Source: Candidatus Latescibacterota bacterium
Lineage (GTDB): Bacteria > Krumholzibacteriota > Krumholzibacteriia > WVZY01 > JAKEHA01
Direction: 5' to 3'
Assembly: GCA_963707635.1 (NCBI GenBank)
Contig: OY970173.1
Span: forward strand, 2,801,489 to 2,865,488
Length of the DNA: 64,000 nt
Shown one piece after another: positions 3,966-57,867 of this stretch. The number at the start of each line of letters is the position of its first letter. The first letter of the stretch is position 1. The position numbers and the translations under genes are program-made. The notes under the pieces were generated by a model that was not told where the DNA came from, made no database searches, and saw only the letters and a list, made by a program, of their open reading frames with translations.

Positions 3966-3981
3966 CGCCGGAGGAAAAAGA

Positions 3982-4010
3982 GAGGGCCGGCCCGAACGGC
4001 GCCGGCCCTC
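3982..4010. terminator. Perfect 10-bp GC-rich hairpin downstream of the CN-hydrolase gene (no clear U-tract)
   Basis: gagggccggc-ccgaacggc-gccggccctc inverted repeat read directly; no T-run follows, so intrinsic-terminator function is uncertain. Confidence 0.3.
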
Positions 4011-4420
4011 GCACGGCACGCGATTCGCGCGCGAACTCCTGCTATCGATACAGGCTCTTGACCTGACCCCACGTCGCCGGTTGCACGGGCAACGGGCCGG
4101 TCAGGTACTCCCCGCTGAGTGAACGTCCGCTGGATCGTCGAGTTGCACTTTCGCGACATCCCTGCAAACTAACGCCCTTCGATGGCCATCCCAAGCCTCC
4201 GATTCACGCCGAGGCCATCCCGGGCCCCACACCACCCGGCACAACGTGATATCCCGCTCCCCCGTGATCCCCGACCGCATCAACCTGGCACACGCCATGC
4301 GGCATTACCGGCGTTTGCCAAAATCACCAAACGCCGATGCGCCGGTTGATTCCACTCCGCCGGCGCTGGCTCACATGAAATCTGCTTGGTGAGTGTGTTC
4401 GCCAACAGGGGGATAGCACG

Positions 4421-12295: not shown

Positions 12296-12317
12296 GGATG
12301 CTCGGATCACCTGCTGC

Positions 12318-12905
12318 TCACTCGTCGCCTTCGTCTCCAAAGTGGGTCGCACGCGGCACTTTTCCCACCAGATCGGCGAACCGATAGGTCTGTGTGAGCC
12401 GTGCGAACTCTGGAGCACCGCGTACCTCGACGTAAAGATGTGCGGCGGGAATCCACGCGTTCTTGGCTCGATACCAACCTTCTCTGCTGGCAGTCGCATT
12501 GACAAGAACGCATTCGAGCGTCGCGGCCACAACGAGCTCCGCAGGCCATCCAAGTTTCTTCGGGTCGAACCCGGTCAAGTCGATGTGGACACGGACCGTA
12601 TCCCCAAAAAGGGCTTGTCCCTGGAAATGATAGGGATCCACCCACGTCTTGATCCCCGCGATGTTGGCTGCATTGCGATTCTCCGGTTTCCCAGCATCGT
12701 TCACGACGAAGCTTTCGTTGCAGGTGTAGTCCACAAGGCGTCCCCACGAGGCAATGTCATCGTATACAACGTACGTCACACGGCTGAGAACGATCCCGTC
12801 CTCAACGACGATGGGCTGCGCAATCTCGATGGCACGTTCCTCGGAGGCAGACACGGTGCTGGCGATAGCCAGAAGGATCCAAGCGACGAGGGGTCGGGCT
12901 AACAT
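12318..12905 (-). CDS. Secreted hypothetical protein
   Basis: Start at internal ATG giving signal peptide MLARPLVAWILLAIASTVSASEE; no recognisable domain. The upstream part of the track ORF is a translation of the adjacent ssrA-derived repeat. Confidence 0.5.
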   Translation of the reverse strand: MLARPLVAWILLAIASTVSASEERAIEIAQPIVVEDGIVLSRVTYVVYDDIASWGRLVDYTCNESFVVNDAGKPENRNAANIAGIKTWVDPYHFQGQALFGDTVRVHIDLTGFDPKKLGWPAELVVAATLECVLVNATASREGWYRAKNAWIPAAHLYVEVRGAPEFARLTQTYRFADLVGKVPRATHFGDEGDE

Positions 12906-13159: not shown

Positions 13160-13891
13160 TCAATTCCGGACGATCTTGCTGAGTTCTGCAAGCGTGGTCG
13201 CCCGGTAGCCCATCTCATCGAGGCGCGGAAGTACCCGATCGAGAACCTCGATCGTCCGTTTGCGGTTCGGCCGCCCGTCGTGCAGGACGAGGACGGCGCC
13301 AGGGCGAACATTCTCGAGGAACTGTTTGACCGTCAGACCGACACTGGTCCTGAGATCCATCGGGTAGGCCGTGGCCGCCACCGGCGTGTACCCGTTCTTC
13401 CGCATGATCCGGGCGATCCTCTTCGTTATCATGCCGCTTCCCGGACGGCACCAGCGGGGCGATCCGAGAGGCTGGATCAGCCTGTCGGTCCTTTTCAGTT
13501 CCTCGAGAAACTCTTCGTCCGACAGTGACGCGCTCATCCGGTCGGTAAAGAGGTGGTTGGCAAGTTCGTGTCCGTCGGAGCGGATGGATTCGACCAGTTC
13601 GGGATGCGCCTCTGCGTAGGAACCGATGATGAAGAATGTGGCCCTGGTCCGATGCTCGCGCAGCACGCGAAGAATTCCCGGAGTCACCTCGGGATGCGGT
13701 GCGTCATCGATGGTCAGTGCAATCAGGCGTTCCGTGGTGTCGATTCGAAATACAACATCGGGGTCGAGGCTGGATACGCGTGCGAGCAGCCAGTCACTCG
13801 GACGTACGAGCGTCCACGCACCAAGGGCTGCCAGCAGCAGAACCACGCAGGCGATCAGGATGAGGGTCACGTCACTCGCCGTCCACGACAC
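13160..13891 (-). CDS. Polysaccharide deacetylase (NodB-homology / CE4 family), membrane-anchored
   Basis: N-terminal transmembrane anchor; NodB-like motifs LTIDDAPHPEVT, RATFFIIGSYAEAHPELV, HELANHLFTD. Confidence 0.7.
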   Translation of the reverse strand: MSWTASDVTLILIACVVLLLAALGAWTLVRPSDWLLARVSSLDPDVVFRIDTTERLIALTIDDAPHPEVTPGILRVLREHRTRATFFIIGSYAEAHPELVESIRSDGHELANHLFTDRMSASLSDEEFLEELKRTDRLIQPLGSPRWCRPGSGMITKRIARIMRKNGYTPVAATAYPMDLRTSVGLTVKQFLENVRPGAVLVLHDGRPNRKRTIEVLDRVLPRLDEMGYRATTLAELSKIVRN

Positions 13892-13899
13892 TCACTTGA

Positions 13900-15093
13900 T
13901 CAGTAGATGAGGTGCTCCGATATGCTGCCGTACGGCGTCTGACGGCGGTTGTCGTAGTGGCGCTTGACGATCTGACCATTCTCACGCCGCAACAGACCCA
14001 CTTCGTCCAGAAGGCCAGGAGCGTGCGATGGTATCACGGTGTGGTTGCTCATGAGCCAGTGCAGCGCCGCGGGCATGCGAAGGAGGGCCACCGTCCGGTT
14101 ACCGGCTGCCAGCGCGGAAAGGAATTCCGGCATGGTCTTGGGTGAGATGCGGATCCGCTGCGGCTCCCCCAGTCCGGCTCGCTCGTGAATGCGCTGATTG
14201 GCCCAGTCCACCGACTGCAGCGCCATCGTGATGCACGACCGCTCCAGCAGCTGGTAGCGGACTTTCCCGTTGAGAATATCCTCGATCGGGTTCTCCGGAA
14301 CCTCTGCTTTCCTCGACTCCTTGGCCAGAGTCTCCCAGTCCTCGAGTTCCGCAGCCGGATAGCCATCAGGCATCTTGCGGCCCTCCTTTATATGTTCTTC
14401 CATGATGCTCAGGGTCGTCTGCCGCGAGACGGCATCAGCGAGAACGAGACTCACATACAACAGCTCGTTCTTCGCATTCTCAACATCGGGCAGGTTCAGA
14501 GGGTAGCAATGCCAGGGGCGGTCGAGTACGGCGTCGGCCACGCAGCGCACCGGACCCGCAAAGCACCTTGGGGTCAGTGCATACGTCGACGGATCCAAGC
14601 CCGCCACGGGGTCGAATGACGAAAGCGGCGGTCGCCACGCCTCCCAGCTCACGACGATGTCGTCGAGGACGGAATCGTTGGTGAAGGGCTGCCCGTCCGC
14701 TCCCAGCACGATCGGACGACGGTCCTCTCGGAAGGTGAAGCGTAGCATCCCGTGCCCCCCGGGCGATTCTCGGCCGGCAACCTTCGATATCACCATGACG
14801 AACTCGACGGACTCGACGGATTCCGCCCAGACCTTGACCGTACTGAGAAGGGTGATCCCTTCCACCGGATTGTTGAGAACGTTGACGTTTCGAACCAGAT
14901 AGTAATGTTCGGAACCAAAACCGGCCGACGAGGAGAGCCAACTGACGAACAGGGGCGCCATCGCCGCGGAAAGCCCGCTTGGGAGCTCGTCCTGCTGGGT
15001 TCTCACGCGAAGGACCGGACTGTAGGTGCGCTGCCACTTGAGAATATCGGCAGCAGTAACCACGCGACGTTTACTCGACGGCATTGTCATCAT
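13900..15093 (-). CDS. Hypothetical protein
   Basis: 397-aa ORF tightly packed between the deacetylase and ftsH on the same strand; no recognisable motif. Confidence 0.45.
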   Translation of the reverse strand: MMTMPSSKRRVVTAADILKWQRTYSPVLRVRTQQDELPSGLSAAMAPLFVSWLSSSAGFGSEHYYLVRNVNVLNNPVEGITLLSTVKVWAESVESVEFVMVISKVAGRESPGGHGMLRFTFREDRRPIVLGADGQPFTNDSVLDDIVVSWEAWRPPLSSFDPVAGLDPSTYALTPRCFAGPVRCVADAVLDRPWHCYPLNLPDVENAKNELLYVSLVLADAVSRQTTLSIMEEHIKEGRKMPDGYPAAELEDWETLAKESRKAEVPENPIEDILNGKVRYQLLERSCITMALQSVDWANQRIHERAGLGEPQRIRISPKTMPEFLSALAAGNRTVALLRMPAALHWLMSNHTVIPSHAPGLLDEVGLLRRENGQIVKRHYDNRRQTPYGSISEHLIY

Positions 15094-15094
15094 C

Positions 15095-17092
15095 CTAGCT
15101 CGCGCGCCGTGTTTCGGTTCCCGCTTGCGGCGCGAATCCGGTCACCTTCAGAATCTCCGGTTCATCCAGCGTCTCCTGCGCGAGCAGAGCCGTTACCAGC
15201 CTGTCGAGCTGCTGGCGATGCTGGACGAGCAGGCGCGTTGCTTCTTCGTGGCATTCGGAGATGATGCGCTGCACCTCCGCATCGATGAGCCGCGCGGTGG
15301 CGTCGCTGATGGGCTTCTCGCCCATGTACGCCGGAGACCCGCCAAGGTACGGATTGCCGGCGGGCGCCAGCTGTACCAAGCCCAGCTGATCGCTCATTCC
15401 CCAGCGCGTCACCATCATGCGCGTGATGTTGGTTGCCTGCTCGATGTCGTTCTCGGCGCCGGTGGTCCGGCTGCCGTACACGACTTCCTCGGCGGCGCGT
15501 CCGCCCAGCGTCCCGACGATACGCCCGCGCAGATACGACTCCGGATAGTTGTAGCGGTCGCTGATCGGCTGCTGGTACGTAACACCGAGCGCCTGGCCGC
15601 GCGGCACGATCGAGACGCGTTTCACCGGATCGGCCCCGGGAGTCACCAGCCCGAGGATGGTGTGCCCTCCTTCGTGGTAGGCGATGCGCTTGCGGTCTTC
15701 GCTGCTCAGCACGAGTGGACGCGTGGGGCCCAGGATGATCTTTTCCAGCGCGTCGAAGAAGTCTTTCATGTGCACGTTGTCCTGGCCGCGGCGCGCGGCC
15801 TGCAGCGCCGCCTCGTTCACGAGATTCTTGATGTCTGCTCCGGAGAGCCCGGTCGTTGCTCCGGCGATCTCGGCCAGATCGACGTCAGTCGCCAGCGGCA
15901 CCTTGCGCGTGTGTACTTTGAAGATTGCCTCGCGCCCTGTCTTGTCGGGAAGGTTGACGACCACGCGCCGGTCGAACCGGCCCGCGCGCAGCAGCGCCTT
16001 GTCCAGCGTATCCGGCTGGTTGGTCGCGGCGAGGACGATCACGCCTTCTCTGCTCGAAAAGCCGTCCATCTCGGAGAGGATTTGCTGCAGCGTTTGCTCC
16101 TGCTCGCCGACGCCGCCCATCACAACGGGACCACGCGCGCGACCAACCGCGTCGATCTCGTCGATGAAGATGATGGCGGGCGCGTGCTCGCGCGCCTGCC
16201 TGAACAGATCGCGCACGCGCGCAGCACCCACCCCGACGATCATCTCCACGAACTCGGAGGCACTCATGGAGAAGAATGGAACACCTGCCTCTCCCGCCAC
16301 CGCCTTCGCAAGCAGGGTCTTCCCCGTGCCGGGCGCGCCGACGAGGAGTACCCCTTTCGGAGCGGTTCCGCCCAGGCGCGTGTATTTCTCCGGCGCCTTG
16401 AGGAAATCGACGATCTCGACCAATTCGTTCTCGGCTTCGTCGATTCCCGCAACGTCGTCGAATGTCACTTTCGTGTCCGTGCTGGTGTCATATCGGCGAG
16501 CCTTGCTCGCGCCCAGACCCATGACGCCGCCCGCGCCGCCCTGGCGGCGGAGCATCCACGCGTAGAACGCGACTATCAGAATGGCCGGTCCGAACCCCAG
16601 GAGCATTGACAGCAACGGGTTGCCCTTTTGTATGGGCTCTGCGCTGATCTCCACGTCGTGGTCGATCAACAACGCCTCGAACCCAGGGTCCACGAAAGAA
16701 GGAAGCGTGGTCTTGAAATTGCGGCTCGCTCGTGCGCCACCGCCCCATGGCCGGTCCGGAGCAGCGCGGCTCGAATCCGCAGGAGGATAGGTCACCGGTT
16801 CTCGGAACCGGCCCTGGATGATCTCGCCTTTGCTGAAGACCTCTTCGACGTTGTCGCGCGCTACCTGCGTTTTGAAGAATGTGTAGGGAACCGTGGTGGC
16901 CGGTTCGGCACCAAGGAACACGCGCATCACGACGTAGTTGATGATCAGAAGGACCAGGAACGTGAGCCAGACTCGGCGCGGCGGCAGGCGTGGGCCGTCG
17001 CCCGACGAACCACGCGGCCCGGTCCCCGGGGCTCCACCGCGGCGCGTGATGGCAGGGCGCTGGCGTTGTTGGTCCTGATTAACGGTTTCCAT
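15095..17092 (-). CDS. ftsH: ATP-dependent zinc metalloprotease FtsH
   Basis: Two N-terminal TM segments; Walker [24 protein letters not shown]; AAA second region [15 protein letters not shown]; zinc site HEGGHTILG. Start set at internal ATG (METVNQ...). Confidence 0.9.
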
Positions 17093-17190
17093 AATCACTC
17101 CTGTGCACCCGGCACTGTGAATCCCACCGCGTTCCTGCAATTCACCAGGCATGGCGACATCTTGGAGACGACCGCGACATCCAATCCATC

Positions 17191-17952
17191 TCAGCCCGCG
17201 TTGCGCGGTTTGGCCGCCCACTCGGATTTCTTGCCTTGCATGCCGGGAGGCAGCGCGAGCCCGACGCGGTGGCGTGCGAAAGTGTCATCGCGATCGAGGT
17301 GGGCGAGCATGAGCGCGGCCGCATCGGAGTACGGAACGATCATCTGTGGGATCCAGCTCGCAAAGATCGGTAGCAGCAACGGGTCGGGGAGCGCGTGAGC
17401 ATCGACGGGAACCTCGACCGGCAGTGTATCCACCGCAATCCGCAGCCGGTTCAGGCCCAGAGCCGGCTCCTCTACCATTGGCCCCGGACACAGCAGGCGC
17501 CAGTCCAGGCCCGACCGACTGAGACGTTCGAAATTGACTCGGTGCGGCCAGTACGTGGACTCGACTTTGGGCAGGTCCACTCCTTTGCGACCGGAAGGGC
17601 CGATGTCCAGGATCGCCGCCCCCGCGAGGAACCAGCATACCGGTTGCGCGGGAGCCGGAAGTGACTCGACGGCGGTTACGAGACGGTCGACGAGGTCAAC
17701 GAAGGTTTGACCCTCCGTGACCATGCCGGCGCAATTTATGAGCGCATCGTGTCCGCTGATGAGCGCTGCGATGTCAACGGGCGCGACTGTGGAGAGATCG
17801 CCCTGGTGCACTGCGACTTGAGCCTGAGCCTCGAGCGGCAGCCTGGAAGGGGTGCGGACGGAAACGGTGACCTCGTGCCCGGCGGCCAACGCCAGGCGAA
17901 GCACGTGGCTACCCAGGGATCCCGTTGCACCAAAGATAACGAGACGAGACAC
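17191..17952 (-). CDS. NAD(P)-binding domain protein (NmrA / atypical SDR-like)
   Basis: GTG start preceded by GGGAGG; Rossmann motif IFGATGSLGSHV near the N-terminus. Confidence 0.55.
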   Translation of the reverse strand: MSRLVIFGATGSLGSHVLRLALAAGHEVTVSVRTPSRLPLEAQAQVAVHQGDLSTVAPVDIAALISGHDALINCAGMVTEGQTFVDLVDRLVTAVESLPAPAQPVCWFLAGAAILDIGPSGRKGVDLPKVESTYWPHRVNFERLSRSGLDWRLLCPGPMVEEPALGLNRLRIAVDTLPVEVPVDAHALPDPLLLPIFASWIPQMIVPYSDAAALMLAHLDRDDTFARHRVGLALPPGMQGKKSEWAAKPRNAG

Positions 17953-17975: not shown

Positions 17976-19730
17976 CTACGGGTTGATCTCGAACCGCACA
18001 GACCGGAACGAGCCGATACCGTGATCGCTCTTGTAGACCGCCACACCGAAGATGAGCCCGGCGTCGAGGCGGTACGTATTCTGAGTCCACCCCTGGTACC
18101 CGGTCAGACGCCGTTCGCCATCGATCCACAGGTCGGCAGTCTTCAGCGCCGGGTCATAGATGATCTCGTATCGGTGATAGCCGCCAACGGGACTCTGCAT
18201 GAAGTCCATACCCCGAAACTCGGGAACGACCTGCGTGGGCAGGCGTACGATCTCCCGGTCGCCGTCCACAAATACCTGGACGGGAAATCCGAGGCCGCCA
18301 CCACCGAATTCGGCCGCCGCATAGGCCGCACCCGCTTCTGCCCTCAGCACGGCAGTCAGCTTCCAACCCCGATCCATCGCGCGCCGCGTCTCCGAGCTGG
18401 TGAAGGGATGGAAGTACAGCCCCCGACTGGGCGTCTCAAGGCGCCAGCCATCGTAGCCCGTGTGTGTCGGATTCTCGGTGACGCCAGTTCGCACCACTTC
18501 TTCGCGCACCTCGAAGCCCTCGGTGAGTGGGTCGAAGGCACCCACCTTCTCCACGATTCGGACCGGCTCCGCCCGGTCGCGCAGGATCGTCCTCTCGATG
18601 GCCGCTGCGGCGGCAAGGGCGATCGCCAACAGCGCGACGCCCACGGCGGCGCGGCGCACGCGCCGGCGCCCCGGCCCGAGCGTACCGGCCAGCGACTCGC
18701 TCCAGGCCTGAACGTCGGTGGGCCGCTCCTCCACCCGAAAAGCCAGCGCCGACTCCAGCGCCGCCCGGGTCTCGCGGCCCGTCGATGCGGGCAGCGCACG
18801 AACGTGCGGATACCCGCCGAGCATCTCACAGGCCACCAGCGCCATTGCATAGACATCGGAAGCGATCGAGTGTTTGCCTTCGAACTGCTCCGGCGCCATG
18901 TAGCGTACCGTTCCGGCGATCAGCACCGCCGTCGTTTCGGGTTCCAAATCCGAGCGGTCGATCTTAGCGATCCCGAAATCGATGAGTCGCACGATGTCAG
19001 CGCCGTCGTTGCGTGGCTGCAACATGATGTTCCCCGGCTTCAGGTCCCGGTGCGCAACGCCGGCGGTGTGCGCCGCGCCAAGGGCGCTCCCCATCTGCCG
19101 CAGGATTTCGGCCGCACGCGCTGGCGGAATGGGCCCCTGTGACAACAGCTCGCTCAGGCTCACGCCTGGAACGTACTGGATTACCAGAAAAGGCGAGCCG
19201 TCCTCGAGCTCGCCGACGTCCAAGATGCCCACGACCCCCGAATGATCGATTCGCGCGAGCGCATGCATCTCCTGCTCGAAGCGCGCTTTCAGCCAGTGGG
19301 ACCGGCGCCCTTCGACACGCATCACCTTGATCACGACCGGACGCATCGCCAGGTGCTGGTCATGCGCCAGGTAGACCAGCGCCTGCCCGCCCGTGGCGAG
19401 CTCCCGGTCGATGCGGTAGCGATTCCCCAACACCTGACCGCTGGTCAGACGTGCGGCGCTCGTCAGACCCTCCACGACCGATTGCCCGAGAGGTGACCAG
19501 GGAGGATCCTCGAGAAATCCGTCATCCGGCGTGTCCCCCGAAAGCAGTGCCTCCACCTCCGCCCGCAGCGCGCCGTCGCCTTCGCAGGCCAGGGTCAGGA
19601 ACGAATCTCGTTCGTCGCCGTCCAGCGCTCTCGCCGCCGTGAAGAGAGACGAGATCCGCTCCCACCGATCGTTCACGCCTGCGCTCAAGCCTTCAGCCTC
19701 GCATGGAGCCAGGACCGCGCAATGGCCCAA
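17976..19730 (-). CDS. Serine/threonine protein kinase with transmembrane segment and C-terminal extracytoplasmic domain
   Basis: Hanks-kinase motifs: ATGGQALVYLA...VVIKVM (ATP site), HRDLKPGNIML (catalytic loop), DFGIAK, APEQ. One TM helix (AAVGVALLAIALAAAAAI), then ~200 aa. Start uncertain: ATG at 19730 overlaps the sigma gene; TTG at 19688 or GTG at 19676 would couple to the sigma stop. Confidence 0.8.
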   Translation of the reverse strand: MGHCAVLAPCEAEGLSAGVNDRWERISSLFTAARALDGDERDSFLTLACEGDGALRAEVEALLSGDTPDDGFLEDPPWSPLGQSVVEGLTSAARLTSGQVLGNRYRIDRELATGGQALVYLAHDQHLAMRPVVIKVMRVEGRRSHWLKARFEQEMHALARIDHSGVVGILDVGELEDGSPFLVIQYVPGVSLSELLSQGPIPPARAAEILRQMGSALGAAHTAGVAHRDLKPGNIMLQPRNDGADIVRLIDFGIAKIDRSDLEPETTAVLIAGTVRYMAPEQFEGKHSIASDVYAMALVACEMLGGYPHVRALPASTGRETRAALESALAFRVEERPTDVQAWSESLAGTLGPGRRRVRRAAVGVALLAIALAAAAAIERTILRDRAEPVRIVEKVGAFDPLTEGFEVREEVVRTGVTENPTHTGYDGWRLETPSRGLYFHPFTSSETRRAMDRGWKLTAVLRAEAGAAYAAAEFGGGGLGFPVQVFVDGDREIVRLPTQVVPEFRGMDFMQSPVGGYHRYEIIYDPALKTADLWIDGERRLTGYQGWTQNTYRLDAGLIFGVAVYKSDHGIGSFRSVRFEINP

Positions 19731-20251
19731 TCCCGGTCCACGGTTCTGGGGTTCACTCCAAGAGCGCTCGCCACTTCGGGCACACTGAGTCCCGCAAAAT
19801 AGCGCAACTCCACGACACGAGCCTGGCGGGGTGAGAGCTTCTCGAGATCCGAGAGCGCTTCGTCCAGGTCCAGCAGCTCCACCGACTGCTCCTGACTGAG
19901 GCTCAAAGCGTGATCGAGCGAAAGCGCGGTTTGCTCACCCTCGCGCTTCTGTGCCTGCCGGTGGCGCGCGTGATCGATCAGGATCCTCCGCATGATGTTG
20001 GCGGCGGCGGCGTAGAAATGTGCCCGGTTCTCCCACGTGTGGTGTTCGTGGGCCACCAGCCGCATGTACGCCTCGTGCACCAGAGCGGTGGGCTGCAGAT
20101 CGCGACCGGGACGTTCGTGACGGAGCCGGGCTCGTGCCAGGTTTTTCAACTCGGGGTAGATCAGATCCATCAGTCGGGACGCGGCGGCGCCGTCACCCGG
20201 CCGAAACTCGCGCAGGAGAAGCGTCACCTGGGTGGCCCGTTCGCTGGTCAT
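19685..20251 (-). CDS. ECF-type RNA polymerase sigma-70 family factor
   Basis: Region 2-like (ALVHEAYMRLV...) and region 4 helix-turn-helix (RQARVVELRYFAGLSVPEVASALGVNPRTVDRDW). ATG at 20251 is preceded by GGGAGG; lies directly upstream of the kinase on the same strand. Confidence 0.75.
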   Translation of the reverse strand: MTSERATQVTLLLREFRPGDGAAASRLMDLIYPELKNLARARLRHERPGRDLQPTALVHEAYMRLVAHEHHTWENRAHFYAAAANIMRRILIDHARHRQAQKREGEQTALSLDHALSLSQEQSVELLDLDEALSDLEKLSPRQARVVELRYFAGLSVPEVASALGVNPRTVDRDWAIARSWLHARLKA

Positions 20252-20402
20252 TGCCTGCCTCCCGTTTTCTTTTGACCCCAACAAGATAGCACGCGACCCC
20301 GCAGGATGTCGCGATTGCCTCCGCTGTCACGCCATGAAGGGTCGAGGGGTGAAGTGAAACAGGCCAAGTTGTCCGAAATGGACGGAGTGGAAGGAGACAC
20401 AC

Positions 20403-21203
20403 ATGGATAAGTTCACAGTAGCGATTTTTCCGAACGAAGCCGCGGCCTATCAAGGGACACGCGTTTTCAAGGAACTGGACAAGGAACGCAGCCTGACGCT
20501 CTACGGCATGGCCGTGATCGCCAAGGACATGAATGGGAAAGTGACGATCAAGGAGGCCGCGGACCGGGGACCGCTGGGGACGGCGGTGGGCGGTCTGACG
20601 GGCGGACTGATCGGCCTGCTCGGCGGTCCAGTGGGAGCGGCGGTCGGGCTTGGAAGCGGTGCGCTGCTCGGGAGCCTGGTCGACCTTTCCAACCTCGGCG
20701 TGAGCACGAGCTTCGTGGACACCGTCCTGCAGGAAGTCACACCGGGCAAGGCCGCCGTCGTCGCCGAAATGGAGGAGGAATGGATCACGCCGCTCGACAC
20801 GCGGATGGAGGCCATCGGCGGCGTCGTGGTACGTGAGCCGCGGGCTGATTTCGAGTACCTGCAGTACCAGGAGGAAGTCGTGGCGCTGAAGGATGAGCTC
20901 GCGGAACTCAAGGCCGAATTCGCCCAGTCCAAGGACAAAAACCGCGCGAAGTTGAAAGCGCGGATTGACCAGACAGAGAAGAAGCTCGAGGGCGCCTCTG
21001 CCAGAGCCGAAGCATGGATGGATCGCCGCCGGGAGGAGACGGAAGCGAAGGTCAAGGCGCTGCAGGCCCGTGCCGAAAAGGCAAGTGCCGAGACGAAGGC
21101 AAGAAACCAGAAGCGCGCCGCGGAGATTCGAGCCGAAAGCGAGCGCCGGTCGGCCCTGATGCAGCAAGCATCGACGCTGGTGAAAGAGGCGCTCAGACAT
21201 TAG
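20403..21203 (+). CDS. DUF1269-like membrane protein with coiled-coil C-terminal region
   Basis: N-terminal MDKFTVAIFPNEAAAYQGTRVFKEL...LYGMAVIAKDMNGKV, a Gly-zipper segment (GTAVGGLTGGLIGLLGGPVGAAVGLGSGALLGSL), then a charged Lys/Glu/Ala-rich tail. Confidence 0.55.
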   Translation: MDKFTVAIFPNEAAAYQGTRVFKELDKERSLTLYGMAVIAKDMNGKVTIKEAADRGPLGTAVGGLTGGLIGLLGGPVGAAVGLGSGALLGSLVDLSNLGVSTSFVDTVLQEVTPGKAAVVAEMEEEWITPLDTRMEAIGGVVVREPRADFEYLQYQEEVVALKDELAELKAEFAQSKDKNRAKLKARIDQTEKKLEGASARAEAWMDRRREETEAKVKALQARAEKASAETKARNQKRAAEIRAESERRSALMQQASTLVKEALRH

Positions 21204-21306
21204 CCGCGCGCTCGCGGTCCTGACCGGTGTCAGGTCGCTGGTCGCACAAAGGATCGGGGCCGTTCATGGGAACGGCCCCGCATCCGACGAGAAACGGGGG
21301 TCAGTC

Positions 21307-22014
21307 ATGTTTCCGCTGCGGGACGATATTCCATCGCGCCGCCGACCGGTGGTCGTCTGGGCGCTCGTCCTTCTGAACGCCATCGTCTTCCTGTACGAGA
21401 TGCAGCTCTCCGAGGTCGAGCTAACGCAGTTCATCGAACGGTTCGCACTGACGCCGGCGGCGCTGACGGCTCCAAGCGGACTGCTCCACCACTGGACGAC
21501 GCTCTTCACTCACATGTTTCTGCATGGTGGCTGGCTTCACGTCATCGGCAACCTATGGTACCTGTGGATCTTCGGCGACAACGTCCTGGATCGCTTTGGC
21601 AGCGGGCGATTCCTGCTGCTCTATGTTGCGGGTGGGCTCGTGGCGGCTACGCTCCAGGTTTGTCTCAATCCCCAGATGCAGGCGCCGATGGTGGGCGCAA
21701 GCGGTGCGATTGCCGCCGTACTGGGTGCGTACCTCGTGCTCTATCCCAGGGCGCGCGTGATCACTTTCATTCCGATCTTTGTGTTCATCAAGCGGGTGAG
21801 TGTCCCGGCCGTCGTCTGGCTCGGGCTCTGGTTTGTAGAACAGTATCTCCTCGGAACGGGGTCTCGCTCCGATGCGACTGAAAGCGGAGGCGTCGCCTAC
21901 TGGGCGCACGTCGGTGGTTTTCTCTTCGGGATCCTGGCCGGAATCTGGACGCGCGCGCGGGAAGCTGCGGGGAGAGGGCCGGCGCACGGTATCCGGCCCG
22001 CCTTGATGTCGTGA
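21307..22014 (+). CDS. Rhomboid family intramembrane serine protease
   Basis: Catalytic Ser in GASGAIAAVLGAY and His in AHVGGFLFG, within multiple TM helices. Confidence 0.8.
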   Translation: MFPLRDDIPSRRRPVVVWALVLLNAIVFLYEMQLSEVELTQFIERFALTPAALTAPSGLLHHWTTLFTHMFLHGGWLHVIGNLWYLWIFGDNVLDRFGSGRFLLLYVAGGLVAATLQVCLNPQMQAPMVGASGAIAAVLGAYLVLYPRARVITFIPIFVFIKRVSVPAVVWLGLWFVEQYLLGTGSRSDATESGGVAYWAHVGGFLFGILAGIWTRAREAAGRGPAHGIRPALMS

Positions 22015-22108
22015 TCGTCGTCGGCGTTACGCCATAAATGTCGAAGGAAGAACAATCGTCGCCAGCCGGCGGAACCGTCGTCCGGCGACACAACCTGGGA
22101 GGTAGATC

Positions 22109-22825
22109 ATGGTGGAGATGCTGGCGCGCAACTGGGGATGGGTGCTGATGCGCGGGATCGCGGCGATACTGTTCGGCATGCTCACGCTCTGCAATCCGGG
22201 AATCGCACTGACGACGCTCGTCATGCTCTTTGGCGCCTACGCGCTCCTCGACGGCGTCTTTATAGCGGTGTCGGCGGTCGCGAACCGGAAGGGCCAGTCG
22301 CGCTGGGTGGCACTGCTGGTGGGCGGGATCCTGGGGATCGCGGTCGGCATCCAGACCTTCCTGATACCGAGCCTCACGGCGGCCGCTTTGGTAGCATTCA
22401 TCGCGATCTGGTCAATCATCATCGGCATCACCGAGATCGTGGCGGCAATCACGCTGCGCAAGGTGCTCTCGGGCGAATGGATGCTTATGCTCGCCGGCCT
22501 GGCGTCGGCCGCCTTCGGCGTATTCCTCATCGCGCGTCCGTCGCTGGGGGCCCTGGCAGTGGTGCTTTGGATCGGCGCCTCGGCGATGGTATCGGGGATC
22601 CTGCTTATCGCGCTGGCCTTCCGACTGCGCAGCTGGGGCCGCAGTCCGGCCATCGCGGCACTCACCGCGCGCGCAGCAGCGTGGCGTGCCGGCGTAGTGT
22701 ACAAACTCGCGAGCCCGCGGCCGCCACGGAGCGGCCGCGTCGCTTCCAGGCCGCGTGTGACGGCATTTCGCCGGCGGCCGCGAGGTTCATCGAGAGTCCC
22801 TCAGCACACGAAGGAGACTCATTGA
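22109..22825 (+). CDS. HdeD / DUF308-like membrane protein
   Basis: Repeated small-residue TM helices (GIAAILFGMLTL, LFGAYALLDGVFI, ...). The Arg-rich C-terminal ~60 aa look non-native; the stop may be displaced. Confidence 0.55.
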   Translation: MVEMLARNWGWVLMRGIAAILFGMLTLCNPGIALTTLVMLFGAYALLDGVFIAVSAVANRKGQSRWVALLVGGILGIAVGIQTFLIPSLTAAALVAFIAIWSIIIGITEIVAAITLRKVLSGEWMLMLAGLASAAFGVFLIARPSLGALAVVLWIGASAMVSGILLIALAFRLRSWGRSPAIAALTARAAAWRAGVVYKLASPRPPRSGRVASRPRVTAFRRRPRGSSRVPQHTKETH

Positions 22826-22847
22826 GTAGCTCAAAGGAGGAACAATC

Positions 22848-23345
22848 ATGTACGGATTCAAAGCGTTCGTGTTCAATGGCAAGAAGACGGCCAGCAAGGC
22901 TTACGATACTCTCGAAGAGCACATGCCGGTCTACCCGTGGATTGATGACGCCGCCGTGGTGTCGAAGAACAAGCTCGGCTTCACCCGGGTTTACAGCACC
23001 TGGGCGCAGGACGACACCGCGGTCGGCGTCGGAACCGGTCTCGGCGTAGTGACCGGTGCCCTGCTCGGAGCCATTCTGGGGCCCGGCGTCGCTGCGGCGG
23101 GAGCCGCGGTGGGTGGTTCAGTGGGCGCCGTGTCCGGCGCGGTCGGCGAAAGCGTCCTCAGCGACCCGCGCTTGGACGACTTTGCGGCGTCGCTCGCGAA
23201 GGACACCTCGGCGTTGATTCTGGTCGGCGAGAGAGCCTCGATCCTCGACTTCACCTCGGCGGTCGCGCCCTACGGTGGAAAGATCATCGAGACCAACCTC
23301 GACGAGAAGGACGTCAAGGCCCTGAGGAAGTCTCTCAAGAAGTAG
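22848..23345 (+). CDS. DUF1269-like membrane protein, second paralogue
   Basis: Same N-terminal pattern as 20403..21203 (MYGFKAFVFNGKKTASKAYDTLEEH...) plus a Gly/Ala zipper segment. Confidence 0.55.
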   Translation: MYGFKAFVFNGKKTASKAYDTLEEHMPVYPWIDDAAVVSKNKLGFTRVYSTWAQDDTAVGVGTGLGVVTGALLGAILGPGVAAAGAAVGGSVGAVSGAVGESVLSDPRLDDFAASLAKDTSALILVGERASILDFTSAVAPYGGKIIETNLDEKDVKALRKSLKK

Positions 23346-23760: not shown

Positions 23761-25245
23761 TTAGTGCTGCGTGGGCAGATCTGAGGAATGTAGCAGCTCC
23801 ACAACCAGCCGCTGCTCCTCGTTGCCTCCCTCGTCGTGCCACCGAACGCGCGTGATCTGGATGGACCGGTTCGTGATCCACAGCGGATCGGACACGGCCC
23901 ATTCGGAGCCATCGAGTAGGCACCACGAATCACCCGTCGCGGCGTCCGCAATCCACAGGTCGGCCGCAATGGTGTCGCCCACGTGGTGCAGCCGTGTCGG
24001 ACGCGAGAATGCAATCCACCGCCCATCCCGGCTCCAGGAGAATTCATGCGACGCGCCCACCTTCAGACTGTCGATAACCGTTACTCGGGCATCGGGAACG
24101 GTGACAGTGTAGAGAAGGGCTCCGCTCCACTTGCGGGAGATGCCGCTTACTGCGATGGTGCGTGAGTCCGGCGACCACTTCGATTCAGTCCCGTCGGTGA
24201 GGTCGCCTTCCATGACGATCTTGGACGCCGTCACGTCGACCACCGTCAATTGATAGGGATTCAGATGCGATTTCCAGACCACGCAGCTAAGGCAGCGGCC
24301 GTCCGGCGACCATTGAGGCAAGGACGCCGGCGTCTCTAGCAAACGGCGCGATTCTCCAGTCGCGACATCGACGATCTCCACGTAACCCCTGCGCGAAACA
24401 ATCACGACGCGTGCAACCAGAGAGTCCGGCCCAGGCACGTAGTTTCGGTCCGACGACGACCGGAGATAATCCGTTTTTGTTTCGAAGGGGACGTCGTCAG
24501 CCCACGGCTCTCGCAAAGCCACGACTTTCCACGGATTCACGGACGCGTGATTGCGGACTGCGCTGCACTTGACGGCAGTCAGGAGCAGACTTTCGTCGCC
24601 CGGCGCAAACTCTCCAACGGCGACATCGTCCAATCCGAAGCTCGCCCCGTTCTTCCCCACGACGCGGAAGCCAAACTGAACCTTCTTGCCGGCCCACGCC
24701 GACAGATCGACAAAACGTTCGCGGTAGATGAATGGATCCGCCGGTGACTCATTGCCAGTGATCGACCAGAGAGACGTCCAGCCTGTCGTACCCGCTTCAC
24801 GAATGTTGAGCGATCCATCGAGCACACTCGACCACTGCGTATTCCCGGACCAGGAAAACTTGATTGCCTTGTCGGTCGCTCCGAGCGCCACCACCGGCGT
24901 GATCAGCCACTCGTCGATAGCTCTCGGTGACTCGCTTCCGACATACGCCGCCGCGCTCCCGGTTCCAATGTTGTCGGGATCGGTGGTTCGGTGCCAGGCG
25001 TGCGGCAGAGGCAGGCCTGCGCTCTTCGTGCTCCAGCCCGGCGGCGGAAAGGTTGCGCCCTCGAATCCCTCCGCCAGTGTGGCTGGCGGTACACGTCCCG
25101 CCGGTACCGCCGACTGGGATCGTTGGGAAGCAGCCAACGGCGTGCATTCTGGTACTCCGTGGGCGTTGCCGACGATGAACGTGGGAACGCTGAGGAGAAG
25201 CCCGGCAATAAACGCCTTCATAAGGAGTGTCATGGGTCGCTTCAT
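23761..25245 (-). CDS. Secreted PD40 / TolB-like beta-propeller repeat protein
   Basis: Signal peptide (MKRPMTLLMKAFIAGLLLSVPTFIVGNAHG); repeated WSPDGR / WSPDSR / WSRDGR motifs. Start uncertain (ATG at 25296, 25245 or 25233). Confidence 0.6.
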   Translation of the reverse strand: MKRPMTLLMKAFIAGLLLSVPTFIVGNAHGVPECTPLAASQRSQSAVPAGRVPPATLAEGFEGATFPPPGWSTKSAGLPLPHAWHRTTDPDNIGTGSAAAYVGSESPRAIDEWLITPVVALGATDKAIKFSWSGNTQWSSVLDGSLNIREAGTTGWTSLWSITGNESPADPFIYRERFVDLSAWAGKKVQFGFRVVGKNGASFGLDDVAVGEFAPGDESLLLTAVKCSAVRNHASVNPWKVVALREPWADDVPFETKTDYLRSSSDRNYVPGPDSLVARVVIVSRRGYVEIVDVATGESRRLLETPASLPQWSPDGRCLSCVVWKSHLNPYQLTVVDVTASKIVMEGDLTDGTESKWSPDSRTIAVSGISRKWSGALLYTVTVPDARVTVIDSLKVGASHEFSWSRDGRWIAFSRPTRLHHVGDTIAADLWIADAATGDSWCLLDGSEWAVSDPLWITNRSIQITRVRWHDEGGNEEQRLVVELLHSSDLPTQH

Positions 25246-25544
25246 TGGATCATCGTGCGAGTGCGACAGGTCGCTGCATAACCTTCGCCATTTCACGACC
25301 AGAAGGGACCGCTGAAAGGTGCTGCAGAGGTGCGTTCAATGCAGAGTGTCCGCGGAGTAGTTAGCTAACGCGGCGATGCCACCCAAGCGACGACTAGATA
25401 CGAAGCGGCGGGAACTGCGGAAACGCGGATTTCGTCATGGAAACGGCGAGCGGCATAAGTTGTTCACGCTTCAGCGGTTGGTTACAATGGCACGCAAGTC
25501 GCGCTTCGCGCGAGCACTCATAACTCTATACGAATACACAAGAA

Positions 25545-25914: not shown

Positions 25915-28836
25915 GTGACGCGCTTGCCAACTCCGCGCGATTTCATCCTGCACCGCAGTTTCTTCGCCATGCTCGTACTGGCGGTCCCGCTCTTCCCGGC
26001 GCTGCTCTCCGCGGCAGAGAACGCGACCTCGACGGCCGTTCCTGCTCCGGCCGCGCCCGTGCGCCATGCGCCGTCGATTGATCGCAACGCCATCCAGGCC
26101 GCCGTTCAGGAATTCCAGTCTTCCCAGTCACCCCGCTGGACGGTGTCGTGGGACCCGGTGAGCGGTCTCCCTCGAATGCTGACTGGCCAGACCACGCGCT
26201 CCTACGGGGCCACATCGGAAGCCGCCGCGCTGGCATTCGCTGGCGAGCATCGGATGCTTCTGGGCTTGATCGATGAGAAACACTCGGTGCGCCTGGTTGG
26301 AACGAAACTCATGCGCACCCAATGGCGCGTAACGCTGCAACAACAATTCGCCGGGATCGACGTCCTCGATGGGACGATTCAGGTGGTCGTGGACGGGAAA
26401 GGCCGCGTCCTATATGTGACAAACTCGGCGTGGCCGGTTTCCGCCGTCGATTTCTCGATCGATGTCGGTGAGAGCGCCGTACGCTCCTCGATCGCCCGGC
26501 GGTTCAGTGGCGAAGACGTCACCTACAATGACGGACCCCGCCGCGTGATCTACCCATCCGGGAATGGGCGGCTCGCGTATGTGGCGTACGTGCTCGCCGG
26601 CCCGCAGGGGCCGTGGCGCGTCCTCGTCGATGCGCGGACGGGCGGCATCCTGGAAGCGCGGCGGTTGGTGGTCGAGGAGAAGCAGGCCCCATCGCAGGAT
26701 GCCGCGACGCAGCAGAATCCGTCGCGCCCCGCGGACGTCGCCGACGTCAATGATCCGTGTGCCCGCGAGTGGAACGAGATGGGGGGAGCCGCGGTGATCG
26801 AGGTCCCGGATCCTGCAGACCCGTACTATGTCGACGTAAAGGTTGGCGTGCCCGGTCTCGGCGAGTTTCAACCGCAGGGGATCGGGACGTCCGCTGCGGG
26901 GATCAAACTCTTTCCGTGCATTTATTACACAATCCAGGTCGACTACAACGTGCACACCTGGGGTGGCTGGAATACTCCCAACGGCTTCCGTGATGTCTTC
27001 TTCGTCAACGTCAACAACATGAACTGGTACTGGAATCTCGGGCTCATTCCGCAGGCGCAGCTGTTCTGTACGACCGCCTACAACGACATGGGACTGATTC
27101 TCCCCGGCAAGGCCTGGGTCGCCGGCGGGAATCGATGCGGCGACGGCCTCTTGTGCGATCTGGTGGGATCGTTCCAGTTCGACATCATCGAACCGAACAA
27201 CACCAAAGAGCTCTATCTCTCGGTTGGGATGCAGCGGGTCTCAGTTTCGTGTCCGTCATGGGGGACCATCCGGGTCAAGATCATCGCGAAGTCCCGTGTC
27301 TTCGACCCCAACCCGGTGACCACGCTGAACCAGCCCTTCACGGACCAGGATGACGCCAACGAAGCCGTTCCCTGCGACGCGTACATCGGCGTCGACCTTC
27401 CGAATCTTACCCCGCCGCCGCCCGGGCAACCCTGGACTCTCACGGGCGACTATTGCGAGATCGTGGACATCACGGCCCCTGCCAAAACGTACACCTCGGC
27501 GCGCGACCCGAATTTCCCCTATCTGCGCCGGTGCGACATGTTCGAAGCGGTGAATGCCTACTACCACATCACGACCAACCAGCTCTACATCCAGTCTCTC
27601 GGTTTTACCGGCCTTTCCGGCATCAACAACCGCGCGCATCGCGTGGACCCGCATGGGATGGATCACGTGGACAACTCGCAATACGTCGGTAATCCCCCGG
27701 GACTTGGCTACATCGAGTTCGGCGAGGCCTTTGTCGACGACGCCGAAGACGCCGACGTGATCCTCCACGAGTACGGCCACTCGATTCAGGACAACCAGAC
27801 ATTCGGCTATTACCTCGGGACTGGCGCAGGCAACGGCTTCGGCAACGAGACGTGGGCGATGGGCGAGGGGTTCGCCGACTACTGGGCGTGCAGCAACTTT
27901 GCCGACGAGAGTACCGCGAGCGGCTTCGACCCCGCCGCGTACGGCGAGTGGAACAAACAGAACATGACCGGGACCCGCAGGGTCGACAAGAACAAGATCT
28001 ATCCGACGAATATGGAAAGCGAAGAACACGCCGACGGAGAGATCTGGTCGCGCACGCTGTGGGACCTCTTTCAGGCAGTCGGGAAGACGACCTCTGACGT
28101 GCTCATACTGGAGAGTCACTATCTCGTTCCTTCACGTCCATTGTTCAGCGACGGCGCCAAGGCGTTGATTGCAGCGGACGCAGTTGCCAACGCGGGCGCC
28201 AACAAGAATACGATTGTCGCCATCTACGTCGATCGCGGCATCTTCCGTAGTCTCGCCGTTGCATCGTCGCCCATCAACGGCGTGCCGATCACCGTGTCGA
28301 GGCAGGACGTACGTGGCGATCAAAGTGATGCCACCGACTTCAACCGGACGTATGCGTGGGGGGACTCGGTATCGCTCGACGCACCGCCCTCGTTTGGCGA
28401 CCGTACTTTCACGCGCTGGGATGTGGACGGCGTCGCGGGTGCGAACGGCGACTTGACCGCCGTCGTGCGCATGGACGAATCGCCACCATTTCACTCGGCC
28501 ATCGCTTACTACGATACTCTCCCTGGCGACCCCGGCACGCCCGTCCGTGACATCCCGAAAGCCCTGGCGCTGCTTCAGAATCACCCGAACCCGTTCAACC
28601 CGACGACGACGATCACGTTCACGTTGCCGAGGGAGATGGAGATCGAGCTTTCGGTGTTCGACGTGGCGGGCCGGCGGGTGGCCACACTCCGGAGCGGACG
28701 CGAACGGGCAGGCGTCTATGCCGTGGTGTGGGATGGACGGAGCGCGGCCGGTGAGACGGTGAGCTCGGGCGTGTACATCTACCGGTTGCGAGCGGGCCAA
28801 ACGGTTCTGACGAGGAAGATGACACTACTCAAGTAG
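25915..28836 (+). CDS. Secreted zinc metalloprotease, fungalysin/thermolysin-like (M36/M4-like), with T9SS-type C-terminal sorting domain
   Basis: HExxH site VILHEYGHSIQ with a downstream Glu motif GEGFADYWA, resembling fungalysin HEYTHG...EGWSD. C-terminus LLQNHPNPFNPTTTITF...VFDVAGRRVATL...WDGRSAAGETVSSGVYIYRL...RKMTLLK. GTG start at 25915 (ATG alternative 25969). Confidence 0.65.
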   Translation: MTRLPTPRDFILHRSFFAMLVLAVPLFPALLSAAENATSTAVPAPAAPVRHAPSIDRNAIQAAVQEFQSSQSPRWTVSWDPVSGLPRMLTGQTTRSYGATSEAAALAFAGEHRMLLGLIDEKHSVRLVGTKLMRTQWRVTLQQQFAGIDVLDGTIQVVVDGKGRVLYVTNSAWPVSAVDFSIDVGESAVRSSIARRFSGEDVTYNDGPRRVIYPSGNGRLAYVAYVLAGPQGPWRVLVDARTGGILEARRLVVEEKQAPSQDAATQQNPSRPADVADVNDPCAREWNEMGGAAVIEVPDPADPYYVDVKVGVPGLGEFQPQGIGTSAAGIKLFPCIYYTIQVDYNVHTWGGWNTPNGFRDVFFVNVNNMNWYWNLGLIPQAQLFCTTAYNDMGLILPGKAWVAGGNRCGDGLLCDLVGSFQFDIIEPNNTKELYLSVGMQRVSVSCPSWGTIRVKIIAKSRVFDPNPVTTLNQPFTDQDDANEAVPCDAYIGVDLPNLTPPPPGQPWTLTGDYCEIVDITAPAKTYTSARDPNFPYLRRCDMFEAVNAYYHITTNQLYIQSLGFTGLSGINNRAHRVDPHGMDHVDNSQYVGNPPGLGYIEFGEAFVDDAEDADVILHEYGHSIQDNQTFGYYLGTGAGNGFGNETWAMGEGFADYWACSNFADESTASGFDPAAYGEWNKQNMTGTRRVDKNKIYPTNMESEEHADGEIWSRTLWDLFQAVGKTTSDVLILESHYLVPSRPLFSDGAKALIAADAVANAGANKNTIVAIYVDRGIFRSLAVASSPINGVPITVSRQDVRGDQSDATDFNRTYAWGDSVSLDAPPSFGDRTFTRWDVDGVAGANGDLTAVVRMDESPPFHSAIAYYDTLPGDPGTPVRDIPKALALLQNHPNPFNPTTTITFTLPREMEIELSVFDVAGRRVATLRSGRERAGVYAVVWDGRSAAGETVSSGVYIYRLRAGQTVLTRKMTLLK

Positions 28837-29044: not shown

Positions 29045-29416
29045 TGGTGGAGGCGGCGGGAATCGAACCCGCGTCCGAAGAAGCAGCCGCAACGGTTACT
29101 ACGTGTGTAGTCCGTGGTGATTTCTCATCTCCGTACCCACCGCGGACGAAAGTGTAACGGAGACCAGCCCGGTAGTTTCTCGCGCCTCAGCCCCAGACAT
29201 AGCCTCGGCGCCAGCCCCCAGAGTATGACGCCCACTCACCGGCCCTGGAGACCCAGCCGGTGGGGACGGGAGCCTAAGCTAGCTTAGCTAGTTAGGCAGC
29301 CAGTGCGACGTTGTTGTCAGCACTTGAATTGGTGCCACCTGGTTTTACGAGGCTTGTGACCTGGCTCGACACGCAACCGGTACGCCCATCTTCCCCGTCG
29401 AGACCTGTTCGCCCCC
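29045..29416 (-). ncRNA. ssrA: tmRNA (transfer-messenger RNA, SsrA), standard one-piece form
   Basis: Minus-sense 5' end GGGGGCGAACAGGUCUCGACGGGG resembles the tmRNA 5' consensus. 3' end GCGGGUUCGAUUCCCGCCGCCUCCACCA is a perfect T-arm, 7-bp acceptor stem pairing with the 5' end (G3:U70, discriminator A) and encoded CCA. Internal tag reading frame ...GCU GAC AAC AAC GUC GCA CUG GCU GCC UAA encodes ...ADNNVALAA-stop. Confidence 0.9.
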
Positions 29417-47454: not shown

Positions 47455-47529
47455 TGGTGCGCCGCGAAGGACTCGAACCTTCAACCACCTGATTAAGAGT
47501 CAGATGCTCTACCATTGAGCTAGCAGCGC
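47455..47529 (-). tRNA. tRNA-Lys (anticodon CTT), CCA encoded
   Basis: Hand-folded from the minus strand: acceptor GCGCUGC / GCGGCGC, anticodon arm UCUGA-CUCUUAA-UCAGG (anticodon CUU), T-arm GAAGG-UUCGAGU-CCUUC, discriminator A, CCA. Confidence 0.85.
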
Positions 47530-48112: not shown

Positions 48113-48190
48113 GGGGTGGATGATGGGACTCGAACCCACGACAACCGGATCCACAATCCGGGGCTCTAACCAGCTGAGCTACACCCACCA
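48113..48190 (-). tRNA. tRNA-His (anticodon GTG) with encoded G-1 and CCA
   Basis: Hand-folded: acceptor GUGGGUG / CAUCCAC, anticodon arm CCGGA-UUGUGGA-UCCGG (anticodon GUG), T-arm GUGGG-UUCGAGU-CCCAU, discriminator C, extra 5' G (-1) as expected for tRNA-His. Confidence 0.85.

Positions 48191-57790: not shown

Positions 57791-57867
<77 letters not shown>

Follow-up and report, generated by a model that had tools for sequence, protein, structure and literature searches.

The 64-kb window analysed here (the whole stretch of contig OY970173.1 from a Candidatus Latescibacterota bacterium, 64,000 nucleotides) encodes on its minus strand an extracytoplasmic function (ECF) sigma factor followed by a receptor Hanks-type Ser/Thr kinase, and we find that the two quite probably constitute an ECF43-type signalling module, judging from their sequences. 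The sigma gene (19685..20251, 188 aa) and the kinase gene (17976..19688, 570 aa) have the order and common strand that an earlier note on this DNA had described, and they are the one pair of this type in the whole window. The note's suggestion that phosphorylation, and not an anti-sigma factor, controls the sigma factor gains support from the family to which the protein belongs, from a QPTA motif containing T55, and from an N-terminal extension of the kinase like that of PknS. Both proteins are, by sequence comparison, homologous to the experimentally studied pair EcfK/PknS.

The sigma factor and its predicted phosphothreonine switch

The sigma factor has sigma2 and sigma4 only, the architecture of an ECF sigma factor; it matches PF07638 at 7.5e-61 over residues 18-198 of the long open reading frame (ORF), and Sigma70_r4_2 is also present. 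It scores 224 bits against TIGR02999, for which the cut-off is 126. Tryptic peptides with their residue numbers, taken from the supplement of PMC13147305, allowed about 94% of EcfK of Xanthomonas citri to be rebuilt, and the rebuilt sequence matches TIGR02999 too, at 163 bits, which supports this being the same family as the ECF43 of the literature. BLASTP aligns the window protein to EcfK with 35% identity (E 4e-19). The sigma factor falls in TIGR02999 together with EcfK and, on this evidence, not in an ECF group regulated by anti-sigma factors.

Published work describes ECF43 members as being without the DAED patch of sigma2.2 and as having a co-encoded Hanks kinase for their hallmark; 88% of members carry a Thr in a motif with the consensus QTTA, and phosphorylation of the Thr in QTTA or STTA restores the charge required for beta-prime binding. 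The window protein has Q53-P54-T55-A56 (20084..20095, minus strand; T55 codon at 20087-20089) in place of the acidic DAED/DxxD patch, with T55-A56 aligned to the acidic Glu-Asp pair of the canonical ECF sigma factor 6dxo. The segment LQPTALVHEAYMRL aligns with LQATELVHEAWMRL of EcfK, which sets T55 opposite the mapped phospho-Thr51, and by analogy we predict T55 to be the phospho-acceptor. A conserved phosphorylatable residue, which the earlier note had proposed to look for, is therefore present: Q53, T55, V58 and E60 are invariant in 24 homologues (55-92% identity), in 23 of which positions 53 and 56 are uncharged.

EcfK has a second critical site, the linker residue T106, which must itself be phosphorylated and which is Ser, Thr, Asp or Glu in 77% of ECF43 members (PMC13147305). 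BLASTP aligns this residue to D113 of the window sigma factor, a position that is acidic in 20 of the 24 homologues; given this acidic residue opposite T106, the window protein may rely on T55 alone, as reported for EcfP.

Gene starts and the search for an anti-sigma factor

The sigma ORF spans 19685..20284 in its long form. Support for its start at ATG 20251 (stop TGA 19687-19685) comes from an upstream ribosome-binding site, GGGAGG, and from the homologues, most of which are 188 aa long; identical 188-aa sigma and 570-aa kinase proteins are already in the NCBI record. The kinase ORF (long form 17976..19730, minus strand, stop TAG 17978-17976) offers TTG 19730, TTG 19688 and GTG 19676 as candidate starts. 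TTG 19688 overlaps the sigma stop by 4 nt as TTGA, the closest kinase homologues start at the equivalent position with L, V or M, and gene callers also place the start there. GTG 19676, 8 nt past the sigma stop, corresponds to a non-start codon in these homologues. TTG 19688 is thus the best-supported start, and we number the kinase from it because the homologues and the gene callers agree. The earlier note had allowed for this TTGA-sharing codon and also for an ATG overlapping the sigma gene by 46 nt; the latter falls away, as the codon at 19730 is TTG, no in-frame ATG exists, and the kinase homologues give no support to a start there.

The note had also reported no anti-sigma gene adjacent to the pair and had left room for one elsewhere in the operon. 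Pfam and NCBIfam searches of the flanking genes bear out the first statement and give no sign of the second, with no anti-sigma domain (zf-HC2, RskA, FecR or similar) in any gene between 13.1 and 25.3 kb.

Domain organization of the kinase

The Hanks catalytic domain occupies residues 85-337 (18678..19436, minus strand; Pkinase 1.9e-32), and the solved structures closest to it are those of StkP and PknB. The glycine loop (100-105), K121, E140, HRD (213-215), N220, DFG (237-239) and APE (265-267) are all in place and invariant in 45 full-length homologues; with this complete set of motifs, the enzyme should be active. A full-length AlphaFold2 model with a mean predicted local distance difference test (pLDDT) score of 82 resolves three N-terminal helices, a low-confidence linker, the kinase domain, a helix at 341-371 and a beta-sandwich at 393-568.

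The N-terminal extension (residues 3-51; 19536..19682, minus strand) is predicted by the AlphaFold2 model as three helices (3-20, 24-34 and 39-51) with pLDDT values of 86-90. No Pfam family matches it at E values up to 10, and its family motif reads ERWxxxxxLFxxALxLxxxxRxxFLxxACxGDxxLRxEVExLL. A hidden Markov model (HMM) derived from related loci finds this extension in 53 of 55 kinases encoded directly behind a TIGR02999-type sigma factor. A profile of 43 extensions matches residues 9-55 of PknS (9eed_A) at E 2e-7, with the runner-up at 0.17; PknS has a conserved N-terminal segment of 83 aa that is invisible in the crystal and is predicted to form 3-4 helices (PMC13147305).

A single transmembrane helix at residues 347-364 (18597..18650, minus strand; Kyte-Doolittle maximum at residue 347) lies within the modelled helix 341-371, and the RRRVRR sequence before it places the kinase domain in the cytoplasm. 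This agrees with the one transmembrane helix and the extracytoplasmic domain of about 200 aa given in the earlier note, which had called the fold of that domain unknown; we find it to be a lectin-like beta-sandwich. The matches listed include over 100 clusters of kinase homologues with lengths of 554-584 aa, a number suggesting that soil metagenomes commonly encode the whole architecture. We aligned 44 full-length homologues, and these match over their entire length, with the ectodomain.

Conservation of the sigma-kinase pair

More than 7,800 homologues of the sigma family were scored, and a scan of one genome per species confirmed 593 relatives of the sigma factor, the best 80 loci of which provide the counts given here. 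A kinase lies immediately downstream on the same strand in 53 of the 80, its catalytic domain beginning 200-500 nt behind the sigma stop, and the other 27 are without one; on these sequence counts the arrangement is not due to chance. The nearest loci in the species scan belong to metagenome-assembled genomes (MAGs) of Gemmatimonadales and Longimicrobiaceae, with 75-77% sigma identity; by this comparison the window would probably be placed in Gemmatimonadota.

Two of the related loci show irregular gene structures. In a Gemmatimonadales MAG locus (L002, 7839-8738), a sigma ORF with 75% identity runs into a Fis-type helix-turn-helix tail (…LRTLYEKLKKYRGE), is without its own C-terminus and has no kinase behind it; P0074 has the same Pfam combination, and a deletion, a fusion or an assembly chimera is likely. 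In L081, where the sigma factor is 92% identical, the kinase region (3790-5610) is split into short ORFs without Pfam matches. The broken kinase, together with a 19-nt spacer in the promoter-like motif of the same locus (see below), is probably due either to long-read indel errors or to decay of the kinase gene.

A lectin-like extracytoplasmic domain

AlphaFold2 prediction of the ectodomain (residues 372-570; 17979..18575, minus strand) with 13 sequences gives a beta-sandwich with a pLDDT of 80.7 and a predicted template modelling score of 0.80, the fold being that of the lectin wing of Vibrio cholerae sialidase. The ectodomain family profile matches the sialidase structure 1kit at E 3.1e-10 and covers both lectin wings; the window ectodomain reaches 17.4 bits against PF09264 (Sial-lect-inser), under the gathering cut-off of 25.8, which some relatives pass, and is 16% identical to the sialidase lectin. 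We find that the fold argues for a carbohydrate-type ligand. Aligned through the family HMM, the sialidase ligand residues R74, R118, Q188, G196, S197 and S198 correspond to R422, L466, D542, A550, V551 and Y552.

An exhaustive search puts the ectodomain family at 898 cluster representatives, a size understated by a word-index search, which gave only 17 relatives. Its fusion partners in a sample of ten relatives are kinases, TIR, a ToxR-type winged helix, TPR repeats and dockerin, which suggests that the domain serves soil bacteria as a general extracytoplasmic sensing or binding module; the fusions in P0144, P0153, P0165 and P0212 are to TIR, Trans_reg_C (ToxR/CadC-like), MalT-like TPR and dockerin. 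Within the set of 80 genome loci, this ectodomain is confined to the three closest kinases, in agreement with the published remark that ECF43 kinases bear widely varied ectodomains. A single-sequence search against solved structures also, unexpectedly, matched residues 100-163 of the ectodomain query (205 aa; window 17979-18593) to residues 648-713 of the Glr2806 protein 9k9w_M2 at E 1.5e-5; the family profile did not regain this match at E values up to 1.

A promoter-like motif shared by three neighbouring gene units

The earlier note had proposed a search for an ECF-type promoter upstream of 20403, and a promoter-like motif is indeed present there. From the sigma-DUF1269 intergenic region of close relatives, and from words common to this region and the upstream sequence of a DUF1269 paralogue in locus L084, we derive the pattern GATGTCGYG-N13-TNNCGCCAYG (short form GATGTCG-N18-CGCCAT). 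The window holds three copies at no more than one mismatch, where shuffled sequences lead one to expect 0.01. Copy 1, GATGTCGCG-N13-TCACGCCATG (20305..20336, plus strand), stands 67 nt upstream of the DUF1269 start ATG 20403; copy 2 (22005..22036, plus strand) stands 73 nt upstream of the DUF308 start ATG 22109; and copy 3 (17150..17181, minus strand) stands 58 nt upstream of the homologue-supported FtsH start ATG 17092. All three are intergenic and oriented with the next gene, and the same sites precede the same genes in L081 and L084, that of copy 2 recurring in L081 and that of copy 3 in both.

Each of the 13 sigma orthologues that we examined (58-100% identity) has the motif upstream, always directed away from the sigma gene; five of these loci were recovered independently through a metagenome scan for the pattern. 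It lies within about 200 nt of the sigma start in 12 of the 13, the copy in L002 being about 890 nt upstream, and deviates by a 19-nt spacer in L081 and by two mismatches in L003. The genes behind it, chosen by G+C content at third codon positions, vary among relatives: they encode DUF1269 proteins, Big_2/LamG lipoproteins, a PEP-CTERM protein or a lipocalin-like secreted protein. Those other than DUF1269 each have a signal peptide and start 43-65 nt downstream of the motif, or 180 nt in the truncated locus L104. The sigma factor and the kinase are the only genes common to all motif-bearing loci, and just one or two chance-like matches turn up in about 1.1 Mb of sequence from the loci of TIGR02999 sigma factors that are more distant. 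On this comparative evidence, we lean towards reading GATGTCG-N18-CGCCAT as the target promoter of the sigma factor.

A further copy of the motif precedes a second DUF1269 gene in L082 (4543-4573) and L083, and another the DUF1269 paralogue of L084; the window (22740-22790) and L081 have a degenerate version before the second DUF1269 gene (CAGGCCGCG...TTTCGCCGGCG). A direct-repeat operator, suggested by two occurrences of GATGTCGC in the FtsH copy, was dropped, as in other copies the second TGTC is either absent or displaced by 2 nt, whereas CGCCAT stays fixed.

The sigma gene itself is never preceded by the motif in its own orientation. An extended -10-like element, TGcTATCTT (20283..20291, minus strand), stands 31 nt upstream of the sigma ATG and is kept in L081, L082, L084 and L085; it is possibly the housekeeping-type promoter of the sigma-kinase operon, and a consensus promoter scan, in which it falls under the threshold, returned nothing upstream of the sigma gene. 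With this element and no motif of its own, the sigma gene fits a scheme of constitutive synthesis and post-translational control. A sigma70-like promoter, GCGACA-N18-TGcTATCTT, was dropped when its "-35" proved to be nothing other than TGTCGC, one half of the divergent motif, read as its reverse complement; the extended -10 is what is left as independent evidence.

If the motif is the target promoter, the predicted local regulon comprises three units. The first, on the plus strand (20403..22014), encodes a DUF1269/glycine-zipper protein with a coiled-coil tail (20403-21203) and a rhomboid protease (21307-22014); the second, also on the plus strand (22109..23345), a DUF308 (HdeD-like) membrane protein (22109-22825) and a second DUF1269 protein (22848-23345); and the third, on the minus strand (13160..17092), FtsH (17092-15095), a 397-aa protein (15093-13900) and a polysaccharide deacetylase (13891-13160), the named domains being Pfam assignments. 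The first two form the divergent membrane-stress-like cluster of the earlier note, whose link to the sigma-kinase pair is strengthened by the shared motif. The divergent synteny is kept, with rearrangements, in relatives whose sigma factor is 81-92% identical, and the FtsH gene string recurs in L081 and L084. Across the 80 genome loci, the DUF1269, rhomboid, DUF308 and NmrA-like genes (the last described below) find no match near the sigma gene, and the sole neighbour matches are two weak ones to the FtsH domain (L007, L017) and two weak ones to a neighbouring 511-aa ORF.

Other features of the region

The kinase gene is followed by an NAD(P)-binding NmrA/SDR-like gene (17191..17952, minus strand; PF13460 1.1e-16) that starts at GTG 17952, 23 nt past the kinase stop, with its own ribosome-binding site GGGAGG. 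No terminator was found between the two genes, and the NmrA/SDR-like gene is therefore probably co-transcribed with the kinase; it follows the kinase in L081 and L094 and does not in L084. The 397-aa protein (13900-15093, minus strand) has no Pfam match, lies behind FtsH with a 1-nt gap and keeps this position in L081 and L084.

The DUF308 gene has one extra base near its 3' end (22650-22700) relative to L081 and L082, so that its frame passes TAG 22695-22697, at which the relatives end after 195 aa, and adds about 43 Arg/Pro-rich residues. A Logan contig with an identical sigma factor encodes the 195-aa version, and the extra base reflects a genuine frameshift or else an error in sequencing.

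Secreted metalloproteases flank the region at 9764-12553 (minus strand) and 25915-28836 (plus strand), M6 immune-inhibitor-A-like and M36 fungalysin-like; both are large and end in a C-terminal FlgD_ig-like domain, and a PD40 beta-propeller protein lies at 23761-25296. Rfam finds no RNA family in the sigma-kinase region; elsewhere in the window it finds a tmRNA at 29045-29416 (minus strand, 181 bits) and four tRNA genes at 47458-47529, 48115-48188, 54991-55064 and 57794-57867 (minus strand), none near the sigma-kinase locus.

Proposed mechanism and alternatives

In the scheme that we propose, sigma factor and kinase, whose genes overlap at TTGA, would be made together from an operon with a probably housekeeping-type promoter and no autoregulation. 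The free sigma factor would be intrinsically inactive, with the uncharged QPTA motif, in place of the acidic patch, on the sigma2.2 surface that meets the beta-prime clamp helices. The kinase would span the membrane once, with the three-helix and catalytic domains in the cytoplasm and the lectin-like beta-sandwich outside, where an extracytoplasmic cue, possibly a glycan, would act on it and turn the kinase on. We infer by homology with EcfP/PknT and EcfK/PknS that T55 would then be phosphorylated, and that the added negative charge would let the sigma factor bind core polymerase. The holoenzyme would read TGTCGYG-N16-CGCC(AT) promoters before DUF1269-rhomboid, DUF308-DUF1269 and FtsH-orf397-deacetylase, a candidate target set resembling one for membrane or envelope maintenance; the promoter assignment comes from comparative genomics, and what the ligand is, and whether the N-terminal domain serves for docking, are matters of speculation. 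The most complete form of this proposal, in which an undescribed lectin-like sensor widespread in soil bacteria detects a glycan or envelope component and acts through a T55-phosphorylated sigma factor docked on the N-terminal domain to drive a compact membrane-proteostasis regulon (FtsH, rhomboid, DUF1269, DUF308) from TGTCGYG-N16-CGCCAT promoters, we offer tentatively, as somewhat doubtful.

Several observations weigh against parts of this scheme. A partner phosphatase was looked for in the genes between 13.1 and 25.3 kb, and none turned up. The ECF43 assignment draws on TIGR02999, the similarity to EcfK and the QPTA motif, and membership of another kinase-linked group is possible. A single-site switch is not guaranteed, in that the T51A variant of EcfK remains functional and the linker Thr matters too (PMC13147305). 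On the sensor side, one of the six sialic-acid ligand positions is kept in the ectodomain (R74 as R422), which weakens the case for glycan binding. As to the regulon, synteny of the DUF1269, rhomboid, DUF308 and FtsH genes with the sigma gene is confined to close relatives, and the pattern was derived from one window copy and its orthologues, so that two of the three copies are independent; another factor could be the one that recognizes the motif.

This last reading, in which GATGTCG-N18-CGCCAT is the operator or promoter of another regulator conserved in the lineage and the regulon of the sigma factor lies elsewhere, draws on a -10-like CGCCAT that is unlike the usual ECF CGTC, on the internal near-repeat of GATGTCGC in the FtsH copy, and on the 80 metagenome pattern matches that were fetched, most of which have no sigma gene nearby (five have a sigma orthologue and two more have orthologous neighbours). 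Most of these matches are, however, to be expected by chance from a pattern of about 17 specified bases, and the halves of the motif are invariant at fixed spacing, whereas the internal repeat is not. The motif's orientation and its distance to the downstream start are consistent, it is absent from the loci of more distant paralogues apart from the chance-like matches mentioned, and it is the sigma factor and the kinase, and not the differing downstream genes, that accompany it in every locus; we consider another regulator unlikely. Less probable still is that the two genes are mere neighbours, the kinase having other substrates and the sigma factor being under transcriptional control or held by an anti-sigma factor encoded elsewhere. 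It is common for a Hanks kinase to act on several substrates, and 27 of the 80 related loci have no kinase directly downstream, but the 4-nt overlap, the 53 adjacent pairs across phyla, the family-specific N-terminal extension, the missing acidic patch, the invariant Thr and the direct phosphorylation in homologous pairs all speak against this reading, to which we give very little credence.

The three helices at the N-terminus of the kinase might alternatively be a built-in anti-sigma-like domain that holds the sigma factor at the membrane and releases it, with or without phosphorylation. The extension accompanies nearly all sigma-adjacent kinases, is an independent helical unit on a flexible linker and has no defined function even in PknS, and translational coupling would supply the two proteins at 1:1 stoichiometry. 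It shows no similarity to any anti-sigma Pfam family at E values up to 10, however, its only significant solved relative being PknS; QPTA already accounts for an inactive free sigma factor, phosphomimetic EcfP and EcfK are active without their kinases, and a docking role for the extension fits the data equally well. We regard such a domain as distinctly improbable and retain T55 phosphorylation by the kinase as the favoured mode of control.

The phosphorylation mechanism is already experimentally established for the family, and the locus adds nothing to the principle. Activation of a sigma factor by Ser/Thr phosphorylation has been shown experimentally in only a few proteobacteria (among them Vibrio EcfP, Xanthomonas EcfK and an ECF43 sigma factor of Hyphomonas), while Acidobacteriota, Gemmatimonadota and Planctomycetota have very many members of the family. 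The locus offers an unusually complete, self-contained example from an under-studied phylum, with a predicted QPTA switch, a lectin-like sensor and a candidate promoter with three local targets, and its signal, docking mechanism and regulon are directly testable in a heterologous host. The sensor fold, like the candidate promoter and regulon, gives a useful lead and comes as no surprise.

Comparison with known systems

EcfK/PknS of X. citri (PMC13147305) is alike in its TIGR02999 sigma factor, with the shared segment LQxT(A/E)LVHEA(W/Y)MRL and the phospho-Thr in register, in a kinase with a homologous helical N-terminal extension of about 80 aa (E 2e-7), a Hanks domain, one transmembrane helix and an extracytoplasmic domain, and in the adjacency of the two genes with no anti-sigma factor. 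It differs in that PknS has periplasmic TPR repeats where the window kinase has a lectin-like beta-sandwich, and in that EcfK has QATE, with a Glu beside the Thr, and needs phospho-Thr106 in the linker, whereas the window protein has the uncharged QPTA and a fixed Asp113. EcfK drives a type VI secretion system, whereas the candidate targets here are FtsH, rhomboid, DUF1269 and DUF308, and the two hosts belong to different phyla. In EcfP/PknT of Vibrio parahaemolyticus (ECF43; Iyer et al. 2020, summarized in PMC8999054 and PMC8103513), EcfP is intrinsically inactive for want of the DAED patch and has STTA where the window protein has QPTA; compared by description, both have a Thr at the second polar position, which in EcfP is phosphorylated by the cognate kinase. 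The signal given there for EcfP/PknT is polymyxin stress. With no other charged residue in QPTA, a single-site switch like that of EcfP is plausible for the window sigma factor.

The candidate promoter resembles that of ECF41 sigma factors, TGTCACA-N16-CGTC (PMC3426412), in being bipartite, with a -35 of the TGTC type separated by 16 nt from a -10 that begins with CG, and in its placement beside the sigma gene and before neighbouring targets. It differs in sequence (TGTCGYG...CGCCAT here), and ECF41 sigma factors are regulated by a fused C-terminal domain and not by a kinase. The lectin domains of V. cholerae sialidase (PF09264; the N-terminal one is a sialic-acid binder of family CBM40, 2w68/1w0o) are appendages of a glycosidase, whereas the related fold here would form the sensory domain of a kinase. 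Plant L-type lectin receptor kinases combine a ConA-like lectin ectodomain, a single transmembrane helix and a cytoplasmic Ser/Thr kinase in the same way, an analogy of independent origin.

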